51,946 bases of DNA from the NCBI GenBank assembly GCA_021796545.1, contig JAKABX010000003.1:1-51946 (forward strand), read 5' to 3'. This DNA is from Actinomycetes bacterium (GTDB taxonomy: Bacteria; Actinomycetota; Acidimicrobiia; Acidimicrobiales; Bog-793). The position numbers and the translations under genes were made by a program. The notes beneath the pieces were generated by a model. That model saw only the letters and a list, made by a program, of their open reading frames with translations, had not been told where the DNA came from and searched no databases. The number at the start of each line of letters is the position of its first letter. Within the stretch, counting starts at the first letter, position 1. Shown piece by piece: positions 1,902 to 10,183 of this stretch.

Positions 1902-2249
1902 GGTCGCGGGGAGCCGGCACCGGCACCTCGGTTCTCGGCCAGGGCACCGCCGAGGATCCTTGCCACCCGCCGGGGTCTCACCGCCCACGTGCCTGGCGAC
2001 GGCACCCGTGCGTGCGGCGCGCCGATCGGGGAGCGCCGCGCGAAGCGTCGCCGGTCCCGACAGGCGCGGCGCTGGCGGCTCGTGAGGAGGAGACCTTGCT
2101 CAGCCGCGCGGCGCCGAGGCCGTCGTCAGGGACCGAGCGCCCGTGATGCGCCGCTCGGCCGTCGCTGGCGCGCGGCCGGTCTCGGAGCCCCCGGGCGCCG
2201 CCCCCAGCGCTCCTGCGCCCCGAGGCGCGTGCCGGACGACTGAGCGGGG

Positions 2250-2996
2250 AAGGGTCGATGCCAGCCTCGAAGCGAAGATCTGCCACGCGAAAAGGCTCTT
2301 TGCCACAAGGGAGAGCGTCACGTACGCCCGCTCGCCGACCAGGTCGTTGCGCCGGCGACCGACCTGTCGGTATTGGAGCCACTGGTTGAGGGCGAAGTCG
2401 TTGAAGGCCACGAACAACGACCCGAAGATGGCGTAGACGAAGCCCGGTGGGTGAAGGGAGGCTCCCGGGCCGGCGAGGTAGGTCCCGATCGCCGCCCAGG
2501 GGACGATGCCGGCCAGACAGCCTAGAAAGAACGGTCGAGGCTCCCGCCGCGTGACTCGTTGGGTTCCTGAAGCCACCCGAAAGCGGTCATCGCGGCGTTG
2601 ATGCCGACGAGCGCAACGAGTGCGGCGATGTCGTCGATGCCGACGAGCACGATCATGATCGACGCGCTGAGCGAGTGCCCGAGCCAGCGGTAGAGATTGC
2701 GGTGCTTGGCCAATTGTTTCCGCGACGAGCTCCACGCCGGGCCGGCGACGACGAGACGGGCGACCGCCGACAGGGCGAAGAAGGCGGCAATTCCCGAGGA
2801 GAAGTTGAGGTTGAACAGCGTGACGGTCTGCGTGCCGATGCCCGGCTCCGGGGGGGTCGCTCGTGTAGGTGGCGCGCACGGGGAGAGAGAATCGGTTGGC
2901 GAGAAAAACGACGGCGAGGGCCTGAGCGCCGTGGAGAGGGCCGGCGCCGAGGTCGCAGGGGCGGAGCCTCGCCACCGAGAGCGGATCACCGGCCAT
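2250..2996 (-). pseudogene. Heliorhodopsin, frameshifted and degenerate
   Basis: Stitching two frames gives LHGAQALAVVFLANRFSLPV / NLYRWLGHSLSASIMIVL / FGWLQE / PFFLGCLAGIVPW / PGFVYAIFGSLF / QWLQY / GERAYVTLSLVAKSLFAWQIF, i.e. the heliorhodopsin helices with the SLVAK retinal-lysine motif. Frameshifts near 2850 and 2540. The 3' end is approximate (the frame stays open to 2100). Confidence 0.9.
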
Positions 2997-3777
2997 CGCG
3001 CACCTACACGTCCCCTTCGAGTCTGCGCCGAGGGCCGAAGGCGCTTTGCTGTTCCTCGCTGCGGCCACGCGGCGGTCCCCCCTGCTCTGCCCGAGGCGCC
3101 GGCACGCTGTCCGGGAGACCGCGCGCCGGCCGGTCGCGCGAAGGGGCCGGCGCTCGGTTCGACGTCCGGTCGCGCGCCGCGCCGGCCAGACCCTCGGCGC
3201 ACTCACGGGGGTACGGCACGCGTGGGCGTGGCGCCGCGGCGCGGCCGGCGTCGCCGCGAGCACTGCGTGCCGGCCTGTCCCCGCCTCGGGGTGCTGCTGG
3301 TGCCGTCCAGTCGGAGGCGTCGTCGGCCGAGCAACCGTTGCGGCGATCCCACGGCCCGAGCCCTCTCCGCGCCGAGCGCCGGGCGCGACGCGGCGTCGAT
3401 CAACCGGGGTGTCGGGACCGAACCGGCGTCCTGCCGATCTGCCCGTGCCGGCTGCGCGCGGGCGAGGGACGCCCGGCACCGCACCTCTCCGGCGCGCCAT
3501 GGCCGCCCGACGGTGCTTGGACCGCCGCGGCCCTTGGCGCACCGGCGCGTTCGCGCTCGCCACGACGAGGTCGGCTGCCCGGTTCCAGGAGGACTGCTCG
3601 AGGCAGGGCCGCGCGGGTCGTTCGCGTCGGCGCGGACCGTGCTCGCAGCACGGTCGGTTGCCTGCGGATTCGAGCGACGCCGTCCGGGTCATCGCGGCCC
3701 GGGTCCGCGCGTCGCGCCGTCGCCCCTCGGTTGAGGCCGGACCTCACTCGCCGCCGGGGCGCAACGCGCCATGGCGC

Positions 3778-6126
3778 TCACGCGTCGGCGAGGACCTCGC
3801 GCAGGCGGGCGCGCAACGCCTGCGCGGACGGCGCGGTCGCAGAGAGCTTCGTCCCTGAGGCGTCGCGCACGTAGAAGACGTCGACGACCTCGTGGCCAAG
3901 GGTATCGACGAGCGCGGCCACGACGTCGCAGCCGGCGTCCGCGAGCACCATCGCGACGCGGTGCAGAAGGCCCGGGTGGTCCGGTCCGCGTACCTCGAGG
4001 ATCGTCGCCCGCGCCGAGGTCCGGTCGTCGAGGCGCACGCTCACCTGCGCCGCATCCGCCGAGCGGGGGCGCCGGCCGCGTTCGTAGGTCGCACCGTGCT
4101 CGTCGAGGCGGTCCGCGAGCGGCACCTGCCCGTTGAGCGCGGCGGCTACCTCCTTCTCGACGATCTCCCAGTCGGGCGCCTCGCCGAAGCTGTAGGCGAC
4201 GTCGAAGGCCTCGACGGCCATCTGGCCGGGTGCCTCGCCGAGGCGTGCACGCAGCACGTTGCACCCGTGCAGCGCCAGGACCCCCGTGACCGCTGCGAGC
4301 AGACCGGGCCGGTCGGGCGCGACGACGAAGACGTGCCGCCCGCTCGCGACGAGCCCGAGGCGCCCGGCTTGGAGCGCGTCCGCGAGCGCGGCCGGAGCGA
4401 CGGGCGCCGAGGGGGAGGGAAGCTCCTCGCCGTCGAGCACGCGCCCGACGCGCCCGACGAGCTCGTGGACGAGCTCGGACTTCCACGGGCTCCACGCGGC
4501 CTGACCGGTCGCGTGGCCGTCGGCCTCGGCGAGGGCTGCGAGCAGAACGAGGGTGCGGCGGTCCTCGACGATGCGGGCGACGACGCCCGCGGTCGAGGGG
4601 TCGTGGAGGTCGCGGCGGGTCGCGAACTCGGGGAGGACGAGGTGGTACGCGACGAGGCGGCCGAGGACCGCGCCGTCGAGCTCGTCGAGGCCGATGCGTC
4701 GCGCCACGTTCTCGGCGATCTCGCGTCCGACCTCGCTGTGGTCGCCCGGGAAGCCCTTGCCGATGTCGTGGAGGAGCGCGCCGATGACGAGAAGATCGGG
4801 CCGGTCCACCCGAGGGAGGTGCGCGGCCGCATCGGCGACGCACTCGAGGAGGTGCCGGTCGACGGTGAAGCGGTGGTAGGCGTTGCGCTGCGGGCGGTTG
4901 CGGACGGCCCGCCACTCCGGGAGGAACAGCTCGAACAGCCGCCGTCGGTCGAGGGCCTCGACGGCACGGACGAGCGCGTGCCCGGTCGAGAGCAGGGCGA
5001 CGAACTGCTCGCGAACCTCGGCCGGCCATGGCTCGGGGGGGCGGTGCAAGCCACGGGCGAGGCGGTCAAGGGATGCCGCCTCGATGAGCAGGTGCCGCTC
5101 GGCTGCGACGCGCGCGAGGCGAAGTGCCAGGGACGGGTCGGCCCGCAGGTCCGCGTCGTCGGTCAGGCAGGCCTCGCCCTCGCGGACGACGATGCCGGGC
5201 TCGATCGGGACGCTCGCGTCGGGCTTCCCGCCGCGTCGGAATGCGACGCGGACCCGGTGCCAGCCCGCGTCGAGGGCGGCGGCGATCGTTCGGCCCGCCT
5301 CGGCGAGCGCGGCCATCAGCGCGTCGGCGTCGGCGAAGCGCAGCAGGGCGGCCACCTGGTCCTGCTCCTGCAGGGCGAGCCGGTCACCGAGGGCTCCGGT
5401 CCGGCACTGCAGCGCGACGCGGGTCCGGGTGATGAGCGCCTCCGCGTCCTGCAGCGCCGCGTCATCCGCCTCGTGGGCACCCGTGTCGAGCGCCACCCGG
5501 ATCGCCCGGACCGCCGCCGCGTCGCGCAGGCCGCCGGCGGACTGCTTGAGGTCGGGCTCGAGGAGGAACGCGAGCTCGCCGGCGCTCTCGTGGCGTGCCG
5601 CGACGCTCTCGTGGAGACGCTCGCACCAACGCAAGGCGTCACGGCGCCAGATCGCCTCGGCGTCGGCGCGCACACCCGCCGCGAGTGCCGCGTCGCCCGC
5701 GACGAGGCGCGCGTCGAGAAGACCGAGGAGGGCCTTCAGGTCCTCGCGCGCGACGCCGGCGGCCTCTGCTCGGGTGCGGACGCTGTGGTCGAGGCGCAGG
5801 CCTTCGTCCCAGAGCGCGTACCAGATGGCCTGGGCGACGTCGCGGTAGTTGCGACGCCCCCGGTGGACGAGAACGAGATCGAGGTCGCTGCCCGGGCAGA
5901 GCGCGTCCCGGCCGTAGCCGCCGACGGCGATGAGCGCGTAGCCGCCCTGGCGTGCCTTGGTCGCTTGCGCGAAGAGCGCGCGCAGGTGCGCGTCCGCCGC
6001 GGCCGCGTAGGCCGCGGGATAGGCCCCGGGGTCGAGACGCCCCTCGAGCACTGCGGCGGCGAGCTCGTCGCGCCGCCGCCGAAGCGACGGGCGCGCGCCC
6101 TCCGCCGCTTCAAGGTCCGCCGACAT
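3778..6126 (-). CDS. glnD: [Protein-PII] uridylyl/adenylyltransferase GlnD
   Basis: AVGGYGR...SDLDL nucleotidyltransferase motif, EPDLKxxxGGLRD, HRFTVDRH and LLHDIGKG HD domain, two ACT domains (PDRPGLL, DHPGLL...DVFYV). ATG 6126 has TACGGT 7 nt upstream. Confidence 0.95.
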   Translation of the reverse strand: MSADLEAAEGARPSLRRRRDELAAAVLEGRLDPGAYPAAYAAAADAHLRALFAQATKARQGGYALIAVGGYGRDALCPGSDLDLVLVHRGRRNYRDVAQAIWYALWDEGLRLDHSVRTRAEAAGVAREDLKALLGLLDARLVAGDAALAAGVRADAEAIWRRDALRWCERLHESVAARHESAGELAFLLEPDLKQSAGGLRDAAAVRAIRVALDTGAHEADDAALQDAEALITRTRVALQCRTGALGDRLALQEQDQVAALLRFADADALMAALAEAGRTIAAALDAGWHRVRVAFRRGGKPDASVPIEPGIVVREGEACLTDDADLRADPSLALRLARVAAERHLLIEAASLDRLARGLHRPPEPWPAEVREQFVALLSTGHALVRAVEALDRRRLFELFLPEWRAVRNRPQRNAYHRFTVDRHLLECVADAAAHLPRVDRPDLLVIGALLHDIGKGFPGDHSEVGREIAENVARRIGLDELDGAVLGRLVAYHLVLPEFATRRDLHDPSTAGVVARIVEDRRTLVLLAALAEADGHATGQAAWSPWKSELVHELVGRVGRVLDGEELPSPSAPVAPAALADALQAGRLGLVASGRHVFVVAPDRPGLLAAVTGVLALHGCNVLRARLGEAPGQMAVEAFDVAYSFGEAPDWEIVEKEVAAALNGQVPLADRLDEHGATYERGRRPRSADAAQVSVRLDDRTSARATILEVRGPDHPGLLHRVAMVLADAGCDVVAALVDTLGHEVVDVFYVRDASGTKLSATAPSAQALRARLREVLADA

Positions 6127-6161
6127 TCCCGCCACCGTAGAGGCCTGGCGCCCGGCTGCGT

Positions 6162-6620
6162 CTAGCAGGCCGCCGCGCGGCAGCGCCGGCAGCGCCCGAC
6201 GAGCTCGAGGCGGTGCTCGGTCACCTCGAAGCCGTTCGCCTCGGCGATGAGCCGCGCCGTCTCGGCCAGGGCGGCTTCGAGGCGGGGGGAGGTTGCGGCG
6301 TCGATGACGAGTCCGCAGCTCTCGCAGACGACGTGGTGGTGATGGTCGCCGCTCAGCGCCTCGGAGAGCTCGAAGCGTGCGAAGCCGTCGGGGCCGCTTA
6401 CGCGCCGCACGACGTCCGCGTCGGCGAGCACGGCGAGGTTGCGGTAGGCCGTCGACTGGGGGAGGTCCCGGGTCGCCGCAAGCAACTCGGCGATTGTCGC
6501 CGGGCGCCCGAGACCGGCGAGCGCGTGCACGATCTCGCGGCGCTGGCCCGTGTAGCGCTGCTCACGGGTCGCGAGCAGGAGGCGCACCTCGCCGTCCAGC
6601 GCCGCTGCCGCGCGTTCCAT
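6162..6620 (-). CDS. Fur-family metalloregulator, probably Zur
   Basis: RYTGQR, STAYRNL, HHHHVVCESCG and GRCRRC motifs; divergent from a metal ABC operon. Confidence 0.9.
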   Translation of the reverse strand: MERAAAALDGEVRLLLATREQRYTGQRREIVHALAGLGRPATIAELLAATRDLPQSTAYRNLAVLADADVVRRVSGPDGFARFELSEALSGDHHHHVVCESCGLVIDAATSPRLEAALAETARLIAEANGFEVTEHRLELVGRCRRCRAAAC

Positions 6621-6660
6621 CGCCCTCAGCGTAACGACGCGACGGCGGCGCTTGGTAGAG

Positions 6661-6675
6661 TGAGAGTCATTCTCA
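6661..6675. promoter_or_regulatory. Fur/Zur box (7-1-7 inverted repeat)
   Basis: TGAGAGT-C-ATTCTCA (one mismatch), between a TAGAGT -10 (6656-6661) and the AGGAGG RBS (6679-6684) of the ABC operon; resembles the actinobacterial TGAAAATnATTTTCA-type box. Confidence 0.8.
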
Positions 6676-6688
6676 TTTAGGAGGCTCG

Positions 6689-7645
6689 ATGCATCACATC
6701 CGGCGCCCGCGCGCCCGGCTCGCCGCCGCGCTGGCTGTCGCCGCGCTCGCGGGCGCGCTCGCCGTGCCGTTCGGGCTCGCTGCGGGCGCGCTCGCGCCCG
6801 CAGCCGCGCACCGCGCACCGGCGCACCTCGTCGTCGTCGGCGCGGAGAGCCAGTACGCGTCGCTCCTCGGGGTGATCGGTGGCGCACAGGTGCGCGCGAC
6901 GGCGGTGATGAGCAACCCGGACGTCGACCCCCACAGCTTCGAGGCCAGCCCGAGCGTCGCGCGCCTGATCGCGTCGGCGGCCCTCGTCGTCCAGAACGGC
7001 CTCGGCTACGACAGCTTCATGAACCGCCTCGAGGCGGCGTCACCGAGCAGGACGCGCCGGGTGATCACGGTCCAGAACGTCCTGCACCTGCCCGCGAGCA
7101 CCCGGAACCCGCATCTTTGGTACCGGCTCGACACGATGCCGGCGGTCGCCGCCGCGATCGCGAAGGATCTCGGTCGACTCGATCCGCGCCACGCGCGCCT
7201 GTTCCGCCTGCGTGCGCAGGGCTTCGACCAGAGCTTCGCCGCCGTCACCGCCGCGGCGCGGGCACTGCGCCGCCGTGCGCACCACGCACCGGTGGCGACC
7301 ACCGAGCCGGTCGCGGACGACCTGCTCGCCGCGCTCGGGCTGAGGAATCGCACCCCCTGGTCGCTGCAGGCCGACGTCATGAACGGCGTTGATCCGGCGC
7401 CCCAGGACGTCGCGACCGAGCAGCAGCTGCTGAGCGGCGGGGAGGTCAAGGCCTTCCTCTACAACGCCCAGGTCACCGACTCGCTCACCGCGACCTTCGC
7501 CGCGCTCGCCCGCGCCCACCACGTCCCGGTCGTCGCGGTCTACGAGACGATGCCGCCGCACCACAGTGTCGTGAGCTGGATGCTCGACGAGATCCACGCC
7601 ATCGGCGCCGCGCTGTTCGCGCACCGTTCGACGAGGTCGCTGTGA
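6689..7645 (+). CDS. Zn/Mn ABC transporter solute-binding protein (ZnuA/TroA family)
   Basis: Signal peptide, DPHSFE, NGLGYD, NPHLWY; AGGAGG RBS. Confidence 0.92.
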   Translation: MHHIRRPRARLAAALAVAALAGALAVPFGLAAGALAPAAAHRAPAHLVVVGAESQYASLLGVIGGAQVRATAVMSNPDVDPHSFEASPSVARLIASAALVVQNGLGYDSFMNRLEAASPSRTRRVITVQNVLHLPASTRNPHLWYRLDTMPAVAAAIAKDLGRLDPRHARLFRLRAQGFDQSFAAVTAAARALRRRAHHAPVATTEPVADDLLAALGLRNRTPWSLQADVMNGVDPAPQDVATEQQLLSGGEVKAFLYNAQVTDSLTATFAALARAHHVPVVAVYETMPPHHSVVSWMLDEIHAIGAALFAHRSTRSL

Positions 7646-8481
7646 GCGCGCGCAGCGTCCCGGCGGCCCTCGGCGCGGACGTGGTCTGCGCGCTCGAGGG
7701 TGTCGGGGTCACCCGCGACGGGCGACGGGTGCTCGCGGGGGTGTCCTTCGCGCTGCGCGCCGGCGAGGTGGCCGGCCTGATCGGCGCCAACGGCGCCGGC
7801 AAGACGACGCTGCTCAAGGTCATTGTGGGCCTGCTCGCGCCGGACGCCGGCACGATCCGGCGCGCGACCGGGGGGGTCGGTTACGTGCCGCAGAAGGTCC
7901 TCCTCGACGCCGACCTGCCGTTGCGCGCCCGCGATGTGGTCGGGCTCGGCGTCGACGGGCAGCGCCCCGGGCTCACGCTGAGCCCGACGCGGCGGCGCGC
8001 GCGTCGCGCCGTCGTCGACGAGATGCTCGCGGCGGTCGACGCGACGGCCTTTGCCGAGGCGCGCGTCGGCGAGCTGTCCGGCGGCCAGCAGCAGCGCATC
8101 CTCATCGCCCAGGCGCTCGCGAGCCGGCCGCGCCTGCTGCTGCTGGACGAGCCGCTCGCCAACCTCGACCTGCGCGCCGAGCAGGACGTCGTCGCGCTCA
8201 TCGGCCGCGTCGCCCGCGAGCAGGGCGTCGGCGTCCTGCTGTCGGCCCATGACGTCAACCCACTGGTGTCGGTGATGGATCGCGTCGTCTACCTCGCGGG
8301 CGGGCGGGCGGCGTGCGGGCCGACCGCCGAGGTCGTGAGGAGCGAGGTGTTGAGCGCCCTGTACGGCAGCCGCGTCGACGTCGTCGAGGTCGGTGGCCGC
8401 ATCGTCGTCGTCGCGGCGACGACCGAGGACGCGCACGCGCACGAGACCGACCAGGCCGTCGCCTCGGGGTTGGCGACGTGA
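7642..8481 (+). CDS. Metal ABC transporter ATP-binding protein (ZnuC-like)
   Basis: GANGAGKTT, GYVPQ, LSGGQQQR, LLLDEP; GTGA overlap with the upstream gene. Confidence 0.93.
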   Translation: MSARSVPAALGADVVCALEGVGVTRDGRRVLAGVSFALRAGEVAGLIGANGAGKTTLLKVIVGLLAPDAGTIRRATGGVGYVPQKVLLDADLPLRARDVVGLGVDGQRPGLTLSPTRRRARRAVVDEMLAAVDATAFAEARVGELSGGQQQRILIAQALASRPRLLLLDEPLANLDLRAEQDVVALIGRVAREQGVGVLLSAHDVNPLVSVMDRVVYLAGGRAACGPTAEVVRSEVLSALYGSRVDVVEVGGRIVVVAATTEDAHAHETDQAVASGLAT

Positions 8482-9371
8482 GCCTCGGGGGCCTCATCGC
8501 GCCCGGCTTCTTCTCGAACGGGCCGGTGCGCGCGGCGCTGCTCACGGGCGGCGTCGTGGCGGTCGTCACGGCGGTCGTCGGCATCTTCACCGTGCTGCGC
8601 CGCCAGTCCTTCGCCGGCCACACCCTGGGGGAGGTCGGTACGACCGGCGGCTCCGCCGCGTTCCTCGCCGGTGTCAACCCGCTGTGGGGCTTCGTCGCGA
8701 TCGCGCTCGTCGCTGCGGGCGCGATCGAGCTCGTCGGCGTGCGCCGTCCCCGACAGCGCGACCTCGCGGCGGGGCTGGTTCTCGGAGCCGGGCTCGGGCT
8801 CGCTGCGCTCTTCCTGTACCTCGGCTCGGTCACCTCGCCGGCAAGCGGTGGCGCATCGACCTCCATCCTGTTCGGCTCCATCTTCATCATCGGGCCCTCG
8901 ATGGTGTCGAGCATCGTGGCCTTGAGCGCCGGCGCGCTCGCCCTGATCGCGCTCTGCGGCCGGCGCATGCTTCTCGTGTCGCTCCACCCCGATCTCGCGG
9001 CGAGCCGCGGTGTGCGCCTGCGGCTCGTGGGCGCGATCTACCTCCTCGCGCTCGCGATCGCGGTCTCACTCGCCGCCGAAACCATCGGCGCGGTGCTCGC
9101 GACGGCGCTGCTCGTCGGGCCGCCGGCGACGGCGCTGCGCCTCACGCGCCGCCCGGGCCGCGCGCTCGTCGCCGCAAGCCTCGTCGGGGTTGCGGCGGTC
9201 TGGCTCGGCATCCTCCTCTCCTACGACAGCTACACCTGGCCCCCCGCGGGCCGCACCTGGCCGGTGAGCTTCTTTGTCGTCGCCCTCGTCCTCGTCTTCT
9301 ACCTCGCCGCGCAACTGCCCGTAAGACGCCTGCGGGCGCGGCCACGGGCCCGCGCTCGGGGGGAGGTGTAG
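8478..9371 (+). CDS. Metal ABC transporter permease (ZnuB-like)
   Basis: Hydrophobic; VLRRQSFAGHTL, LFGSI, LLVGPPATA; GTGA overlap. Confidence 0.88.
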   Translation: MSLGGLIAPGFFSNGPVRAALLTGGVVAVVTAVVGIFTVLRRQSFAGHTLGEVGTTGGSAAFLAGVNPLWGFVAIALVAAGAIELVGVRRPRQRDLAAGLVLGAGLGLAALFLYLGSVTSPASGGASTSILFGSIFIIGPSMVSSIVALSAGALALIALCGRRMLLVSLHPDLAASRGVRLRLVGAIYLLALAIAVSLAAETIGAVLATALLVGPPATALRLTRRPGRALVAASLVGVAAVWLGILLSYDSYTWPPAGRTWPVSFFVVALVLVFYLAAQLPVRRLRARPRARARGEV

Positions 9372-9373
9372 CG

Positions 9374-10183
9374 GTGTTCAGTGGCTTCATGCTCAACACC
9401 TGGGTCGCGGCGACCCTGGTCGCCGTCGTCGCCGGCGCGGTCGGCCTGTTCGTCGCGCTGCGCGGCTCGTCCTTCGTCGCGCACGCGGTCCCCCACGGGG
9501 CTTTCGGCGGCGCGGCGGGGGCGGCATTGCTCGGCTGGAACCCCGTTCTCGGCCTCGGCATCTTCGCCGCGGGCGGCGCGCTCTCGATGGGGTGGCTCTC
9601 GCGCCGGGGCCGCCACGACGTCGGGACGGCTCTCGCACTCGTGACGATGCTCGGCACCGGTGCCCTCTTCCTCAGCTGGAGCAACGAGTACGCGTCGCAG
9701 GTCTACGCGCTGCTGTTCGGCGAGGTGCTCGGTGTCGCCCGTGGCGAGCTCTTGCCGATCGCGGGCGTCGGTGCCGCGAGCCTCGGCGTGCTCGCGCTCG
9801 TCGCCCGGCCCCTCCTCGCCACCTCGGTGCTCGCCGACGCGGCGCCGACCCGGGGGCGGGGTGCGCGACGGGTCGAGACGGCCTTCCTCCTCCTCGTCGC
9901 GCTCGCGACGACGATGAGCGTCCCGGTCGTCGGGGCGCTCTTGATGTTCAGCCTGATGGTGGCCCCGGGGGCGACCGCGCGCCTTGTCAGCGACCGACCC
10001 GGGCGTGCCGCCGCGGTCTCGGTCGCGCTTGCGCTCGGGATCGTCTGGAGCGCCGTCGCGCTCTCCTACGTGCTCAACTGGCCGGTGGGCTTCTTTGTCG
10101 GGACCCTCGGCGCCCTCGCGTACGGCGGTGGACGTCTGCTCGCCCTCCGGCGCGCCGGCGCCGGCGCGCCGGAGGGGGGCTAG
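9374..10183 (+). CDS. Metal ABC transporter permease (second ZnuB-like subunit)
   Basis: LRGSSFVAHAVPH, LLFGEVLGV, VVGALLMFSLMVAPGATA; GGAGG RBS. Confidence 0.88.
   Translation: MFSGFMLNTWVAATLVAVVAGAVGLFVALRGSSFVAHAVPHGAFGGAAGAALLGWNPVLGLGIFAAGGALSMGWLSRRGRHDVGTALALVTMLGTGALFLSWSNEYASQVYALLFGEVLGVARGELLPIAGVGAASLGVLALVARPLLATSVLADAAPTRGRGARRVETAFLLLVALATTMSVPVVGALLMFSLMVAPGATARLVSDRPGRAAAVSVALALGIVWSAVALSYVLNWPVGFFVGTLGALAYGGGRLLALRRAGAGAPEGG

Follow-up and report, generated by a model that had tools for sequence, protein, structure and literature searches.

The window analyzed here, a stretch of 51,946 nucleotides with a G+C content of 73.6% and many long spurious open reading frames (ORFs), comes from a metagenome bin (G000; 1.78 Mb in 120 contigs, 68% complete) of an uncultured, high-G+C, Acidimicrobiia-like actinobacterium of mine-drainage communities. 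A profile search revealed three matches to the heliorhodopsin family PF18761 that are colinear on the minus strand, at 2996-2841, 2839-2537, and 2534-2253, and the protein is spread over two frames of that strand, as the initial annotation of this DNA had proposed. Piece A (2841..2996) opens with the ATG at 2994-2996 and follows the start frame from M-A-G-D to P-P-G-A-G, covering helix A and the AB loop. Piece B (2537..2839) lies in a second frame, from I-G-T-Q to G-G-S-L, and holds helices B to D, whereas piece C (2253..2534) is in the start frame again, begins with P-F-F-L-G-C, includes S-L-V-A-K, and forms helices E to G. Pieces B and C both exceed the curated PF18761 cut-off of 26.7 bits and hence belong to the family by its own score, with 87.6 bits (profile positions 46-146; query 2525-2848) and 126.8 bits (profile positions 151-241; query 2240-2546), respectively. 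Piece A, with 17.3 bits (profile positions 1-38; query 2850-2996), falls below the cut-off but is colinear with the other two. A PF18761 scan of the whole assembly recovered the two strong matches again, without a second copy elsewhere.

The frame of piece B ends at a TAG at 2522-2524. As had also been noted from the sequence, one minus-strand frame nevertheless stays open, without interruption, across the whole locus (2100..3692, 530 aa). A heliorhodopsin is expected to present its seven helices in a single frame of about 250-270 aa, and no such frame is found here, owing to a base gained at ~2840 and a base lost at 2535/2536. Two independent one-base indels cancel each other about half the time, by our own reasoning, and given the high G+C content and the many spurious ORFs, neither the open scrambled frame nor the opposite signs of the two shifts need a special explanation.

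The lesions were defined against an intact gene of the same genus, that of genome G002 (257 aa; L005:1483-2253, minus strand), with which the locus shares 76% DNA identity. Locus L015 is the same gene as this G002 copy, and its row was dropped from the relatives. The DNA alignment to the G002 gene contains four lesions, all given on the minus strand. The first is an extra base at ~2840 (GCCGGG-C-ATC versus GCTGGG-GTC in G002), which causes the first frameshift. The second is a codon short of one base at 2535..2536 (CTCGA-CCG versus CTTGGCCCC in G002); this second frameshift returns the reading to the start frame and gives an exact site to the return shift previously placed near 2540. The third is an in-frame deletion of 12 bp, with its junction at 2644..2645, through which helix C has lost four residues that are present in all relatives and that read I-A-M-L in the G002 gene. 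The fourth is a lost stop codon, since 2241..2243 reads TCA and the G002 gene ends there with TGA, and the frame continues for ~47 codons, to 2100.

Positions 2850..2856, inside the P-P-G codons, form a polymorphic run of seven G (G7; C7 when read on the coding strand). The initial annotation had put the first shift at this run. The run is real, but the extra base is found ~10 nt downstream of it, because the start frame matches the relatives all the way through the run (D-P-P-G-A-G in the window, G-P-P-G-A-G in relatives). In total, the window holds 7 runs of at least seven G or C. The run is missing from the G002 gene, which has GGCCCGCCCGG at that place, and neither of the two frame changes was found in any of the 43 aligned relatives (0/43).

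We next considered single residues, numbered after heliorhodopsin 48C12 through an alignment of the G002 protein to PDB 6su3 (E = 1.3e-71, 242 residues). We checked 19 sites in 119 homologues from a large protein collection, and all of them are invariant or nearly so. At the locus, 12 of the 19 are retained (His23, Ser76, Asn101, Arg104, Trp105, Ser111, Glu149, Gln213, Gln216, Glu230, Ser237, and Lys241), and the other seven are lost (N16D, H80R, Y92S, E107G, Y108H, W223R, and Y226D). Among the lost sites, Glu107, His80, Tyr92, Tyr108, and Tyr226 are invariant in 119 of the 119 homologues, and Asn16 is found in 117, with gaps in two. By piece, A retains His23 and has Asp for Asn16; B carries the replacements H80R (2756-2758), Y92S, and E107G with Y108H (2675-2680); and C retains the retinal lysine together with Ser237, Gln213, and Gln216, with Arg for Trp223 and Asp for Tyr226.

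The codon of the retinal Lys241 (AAG, 2298-2300) is intact within S-L-V-A-K, and the residue is lysine in all 119 homologues. The helix C arginine, Arg104, is likewise retained in Y-R-W; the consulted portion of one study (10.1101/2021.02.16.431466) describes Arg104 and the lysine as a filter for heliorhodopsin intactness. The counterion is gone, with GGG (Gly) at 2678-2680 where 119 of 119 homologues encode Glu107. More specifically, GGG CAC (Gly-His) at 2675-2680 yields RWLGHS in place of the Glu-Tyr of relatives, and the codon at 2756-2758 yields SAVAR in place of their SAVAH. According to the sections of PMC7049168 available to us, 17 of the 19 sites are highly conserved across all heliorhodopsins, and Glu107 is the Schiff-base counterion. 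Six of the 17 conserved residues named in those sections are lost at the locus. The polar set around the Schiff-base cavity that they describe is reduced to His23, Asn101, and Glu230, its losses being H80R, N16D, Y92S, Y108H, and Y226D.

These results agree with most of what the initial annotation had read from the letters, namely the intact SLVAK lysine codon, RWLGHS, SAVAR, and about four residues missing before GIDD, the last of which corresponds to the 12-bp deletion. Its lesions, residues, and frames stand, and only the site of the first shift had to be moved. Its reading of the locus as a decayed heliorhodopsin that lost the counterion and kept the lysine is likewise supported, by the PF18761 matches and by the residue check in 119 homologues. 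The lost stop and four more replaced invariant residues come in addition to what it had listed.

The locus is partly visible to gene callers, contrary to the expectation that automated annotation would miss it. They call an ORF of 158 aa (P0002; 2100..2576, minus strand) that begins at a GTG (2574-2576), crosses the -1 site, and terminates at 2100-2102. This exact sequence is found on three contigs (NCBI, Logan, and ENA), the longest of which has 98,653 bases, and it carries a precomputed PF18761 match. Only the N-terminal two thirds of the gene are uncalled, and the 226-aa and 530-aa ORFs of the locus are not on record in the protein collection. Surveys that count Pfam matches would thus class the genome as heliorhodopsin positive from a C-terminal fragment.

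With regard to constraint, the three pieces were joined by their coordinates, with an X at the short codon, and this read-through was aligned to 43 distinct relatives with DNA. Among the 69 columns that are invariant in the 43 relatives, 12 are changed in the window (10 substitutions and 2 deleted residues); when the relatives were left out one at a time, at most two such columns were changed in any of them (median 0). Residues absent from 10 close relatives make up 39 of 247 in the window, compared with 5-17 private residues per relative. Three-point Nei-Gojobori estimates for the terminal branch of the window gave dN 0.125, dS 0.376, and omega 0.33, where dS is noisy at distances of 0.3-0.7, and the terminal branches of ten relatives gave dN 0.028-0.061 and omega 0.08-0.18. 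The dN of the window is therefore 2-4 times that of its relatives. In a FastTree phylogeny, the window is sister to L014 (support 0.87), in a group of 11 within the clade of its closest relatives, and its terminal branch measures 0.313 versus a median of 0.100. The excess of dN is spread evenly over pieces A, B, and C (2.9, 2.2, and 2.3 times, respectively), and so the whole gene has been drifting, not the out-of-frame middle alone.

The same numbers speak to the age of the decay. Since omega is 0.33 and not 1, most of the terminal branch was presumably spent under constraint, and the loss would have occurred part-way along it; a crude mixture estimate suggests that constraint has been absent for roughly a quarter of this long branch. 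The initial annotation had called the gene recently decayed. Given 12 changed columns among the 69 invariant ones, a dN 2-4 times as high as in relatives, the deletion of 12 bp, and the missing stop, such a description would hold only on the scale of the long terminal branch itself. The earlier interpretation is correct in substance but overstates both the recency of the decay and the invisibility of the locus to annotation.

The losses at invariant columns are denser in piece B (8/29) than in piece C (2/34; Fisher P = 0.035), which might hint that the C-terminal part stayed under constraint for longer; the dN ratios do not support this. Such a difference would fit a remnant that is still in use, with the C-terminal three-helix ORF (2576-2100) expressed in a retinal-independent or otherwise altered role, perhaps as one half of a split pair in the G9 allele described below. 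Continued use would also fit with the gene callers reporting this 158-aa ORF and with the omega of piece C, which is the lowest of the three (0.23). Against these points, the dN excess of piece C (2.3 times) equals that of piece B (2.2 times) relative to family norms, and in piece C itself Tyr226, Trp223, and the stop codon are gone. In addition, no promoter-like site was found, no Shine-Dalgarno-like motif was seen before the GTG, and no stand-alone C-terminal form is present among the listed homologues, which are 138-441 aa long. We consider continued use of the remnant improbable, even though it fares best among the alternatives to simple decay.

One search found the stretch in nine sequencing runs, from mine drainage, mine tailings, sediment, or unlabelled metagenomes, and four of them were compared through their Logan contigs, namely X1 (which may be the source sample), X2 (same study), X5 (another study), and X6. 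This evidence consists of Logan contigs rather than raw reads, at a depth of ~2-13, in which rare or minority intact alleles would be hidden. The -1 site at 2535/2536 is covered gap-free and is unchanged in X1, X2, and X5 (three runs from two studies; depth in X5, 2.2). In X1 and X2, which are two samples from a single study, the +1 base at ~2840, RWLGHS, and the junction of the 12-bp deletion match the window, and the region of the lost stop is unchanged in X1, X2, and X6, the contig of which spans 2000-2442 with a single differing letter, at 2128. Neither the first break nor the Gly-His codons fall within the X5 and X6 contigs; the first break is accordingly seen in two samples of one study only, between which the length of the G run differs.

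This difference in length is the sole indel difference among the contigs. In X2 (depth 7.4), GG is inserted behind 2849, giving G9, and X1 has G7 like the window. Together with the extra base at 2840, G9 amounts to three added bases, which places pieces A and B in one frame (D-P-P-P-E-P-G-I-G-T); since the -1 site is unchanged, the frame of the G9 allele still stops at the TAG at 2522-2524. The population therefore has at least two alleles, G7 and G9, and both are broken. Short contigs 88-95% alike to 2362-2456 and 2593-2713 were also seen in X1, X2, X5, and X6, some of them at much higher depth (up to about 160-fold), and these belong to heliorhodopsin genes, probably intact, of other organisms in the same communities.

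The breaks are real and are not errors of assembly. An organism with an intact heliorhodopsin that was misread at G/C-rich stretches of a low-coverage bin might be suspected, given the 120 contigs and 68% completeness of the bin, the depth of only about 2-13 in the runs, and a G7 run that adjoins the first break and differs in length between two samples. However, three runs from two studies agree at the -1 site, both of the runs that reach the +1 base contain it, and the fragment protein P0002 is on record from three sources. Frame errors would, moreover, leave the 12-bp deletion, the lost stop, and six replaced invariant residues unexplained, and the G9 allele is still broken at 2535/2536. 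Neither allele restores a single frame, RWLGHS recurs in both runs that cover it, and we regard such an error as very improbable.

The two alleles also raise the idea that the locus is alive, that G7/G9 is an active slipped-strand switch, and that, in the G9 state, a 158-codon N-terminal ORF of four helices and the lysine-bearing 158-aa C-terminal ORF of three helices, with a start of its own, are both produced and reassemble into a split membrane protein that lacks the counterion. If true, this would be a split heliorhodopsin-derived protein with a new role, possibly not a light-driven one; we find it as hard to credit as an assembly error. Least probable of all is programmed recoding or a phase-variable switch, in which slippage at the G run or ribosomal frameshifting would supply part of the population with a full-length working heliorhodopsin: the run is indeed polymorphic (G7 in X1, G9 in X2) and G9 does put pieces A and B in one frame, but neither allele gives a whole frame, the -1 site is fixed in the three runs that cover it, no slippery heptamer was seen at either break, neither the frame changes nor the run occur in any of the 43 aligned relatives (0/43, where programmed frameshifts of the prfB/dnaX type have a slippery site conserved in diverged relatives), and no frame brings back the counterion or the five other invariant residues.

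Heliorhodopsin decay is recurrent among the kin of this organism. In 40 related genomes, full-length matches were found in six, and three others (G001, G009, and G028) have broken copies. The remnant in G001 (L010:1-340, on G001:C145, minus strand) is much further decayed than the one in the window: it has lost the N-terminal third or so, contains a frameshift, and has Ala-Ser in place of Glu-Tyr. It lies directly downstream of a gene for a 381-aa protein, and the same gene is located one further from the intact copy of G002; this shared flank indicates that the G001 remnant occupies the orthologous site of the G002 gene. The 12 bp deleted in the window are still present in G001, and the two decays are therefore independent, at least in this event. 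In G009, the remnant (L011:1513-2012) has an in-frame TGA and a frameshift, and the region of RWLEY is deleted, whereas in G028 (L009:1415-1701) an internal deletion fuses helix A to helices F-G, the lysine-bearing end.

The pattern extends to the order. We examined an evenly drawn sample of 251 genomes that includes this one, with all others at least 80% complete, and found a PF18761 match in 70 of them, 64 with a full-length match. The six genomes with partial matches only are G000, G028, G125, G268, G120 (below the cut-off), and G219 (probably cut by contig ends). Matches that are split or contain stops were found at G125:C560:19332-19884, G268:C14:10282-10844, G223:C20:301992-302706, and G165:C33:22567-23095, and in G223 and G165 these fragments occur alongside an intact copy. 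As far as the portions of the published heliorhodopsin work available to us extend, pseudogenes are either filtered out or mentioned in general remarks only.

In the window, the remnant is preceded on the same strand by glnD, encoding a GlnD-type PII uridylyltransferase (3778-6135, minus strand), at a distance of 780 bp. This gap (2997-3777) and the 3' extension contain no Pfam match, no Rfam match (E up to 0.1), and no promoter-like or terminator-like site; the 780-bp stretch itself may be another gene fossil. On its downstream side, the remnant is followed by an aldose 1-epimerase gene, on the opposite strand, and by SurE. None of glnD, aldose epimerase, and SurE was found near the heliorhodopsin genes of relatives (0 of 85 loci), and in G001 and G002 the 1.4-1.5 kb downstream of glnD (L012 and L013) contains nothing heliorhodopsin-like. 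The available text of PMC9529153 links heliorhodopsin to the regulation of glutamine synthetase, and two further papers deal, in the portions at hand, with heliorhodopsin function (PMC11109279; 10.1101/2021.02.01.429150). We treat the adjacency to glnD as a coincidence; no relative shares it.

Elsewhere in the window, a Fur/Zur-family regulator stands beside a ZnuA/ZnuC/ZnuB-type metal ABC importer at 6165-10180, as in an ordinary zinc-uptake locus. The G000 homologue of the 381-aa flank gene of G001 and G002 lies on another contig (G000:C8:9362-10540; L094) and is 51% identical to that of G001; the match contains a TAG, which may reflect another broken gene or a match that overruns the gene end. 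The MetE-like flank was not found in the 68%-complete bin of G000.

The initial annotation had also pointed to the absence of retinal-synthesis genes. Indeed, blh (PF15461), RPE65 (PF03055), and type-1 rhodopsin (PF01036) were found in none of the three genomes of the genus (G000, 68% complete; G001; and G002), where the searches with PF15461 and PF01036 show little, having matched in no control genome. The absence says little, because G002 has an intact heliorhodopsin and lacks these genes too. Of the three genomes, G001 and G002 contain PF00494, which was not found in the 68%-complete G000. Tandem pairs of SQS_PSY-family genes are located at G001:C147:8264-9900 and G002:C1:9557-11193 and were not found in G000; tandem pairs of this family may serve squalene or hopanoid rather than carotenoid synthesis.

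Collectively, we consider it very likely (probability of about 0.9) that a subfamily-1-type heliorhodopsin gene survives at this locus as a real, nonfunctional remnant, an ordinary pseudogene whose decay began some time ago. Like the genes of its relatives, the ancestral gene would have encoded a seven-helix retinal protein of about 257 aa. We infer that selection was relaxed in this lineage, possibly because light sensing was needed less. Residues of the Schiff-base region (Glu107, Tyr108, His80, Asn16, Tyr92, and Tyr226) were replaced, four helix C residues were deleted, a base was gained near 2840 and another lost at 2535/2536, and the stop mutated away, in an order that these data can only suggest. 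As the two indels cancel, the start frame is open from end to end with ~100 central codons out of frame, and the homopolymer adjoining the first break, present as G7 or G9, still slips in the population. Neither allele restores the gene as a whole, and the locus is not expected to sense light.

A single locus of this kind is of little weight. It provides a natural and well-documented knockout of a gene for a light sensor, the role of which in the cell is still debated. Its value is comparative, in that the order has many intact and several independently broken heliorhodopsins, and within one genus alone the gene occurs intact, half decayed, and almost erased. Comparing such sets could reveal genes that disappeared along with heliorhodopsin and that might hint at its partners.

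With regard to known systems, the pieces in the window are colinear with heliorhodopsin 48C12 (PDB 6SU3/6SU4 and 6UH3; subfamily 1, PF18761), from which the locus differs by its two frameshifts, the four-residue deletion in helix C, the lost stop, and the replaced counterion. Intact orthologues, which the initial annotation had suggested looking for, do exist in relatives. The nearest are the 257-aa gene of G002 (L005:1483-2253), P0003 (= L014), L020, and P0004; the last is 100% covered by L017, which is therefore no separate comparison. These belong to the same clade and share 70-76% amino acid identity with the read-through, but each is one uninterrupted gene in which all invariant sites are preserved, and they are located in a different genomic context. 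In comparison with the other broken copies, the remnant described here is distinguished by two frameshifts that cancel each other and by a lysine-bearing end that remains in the start frame.
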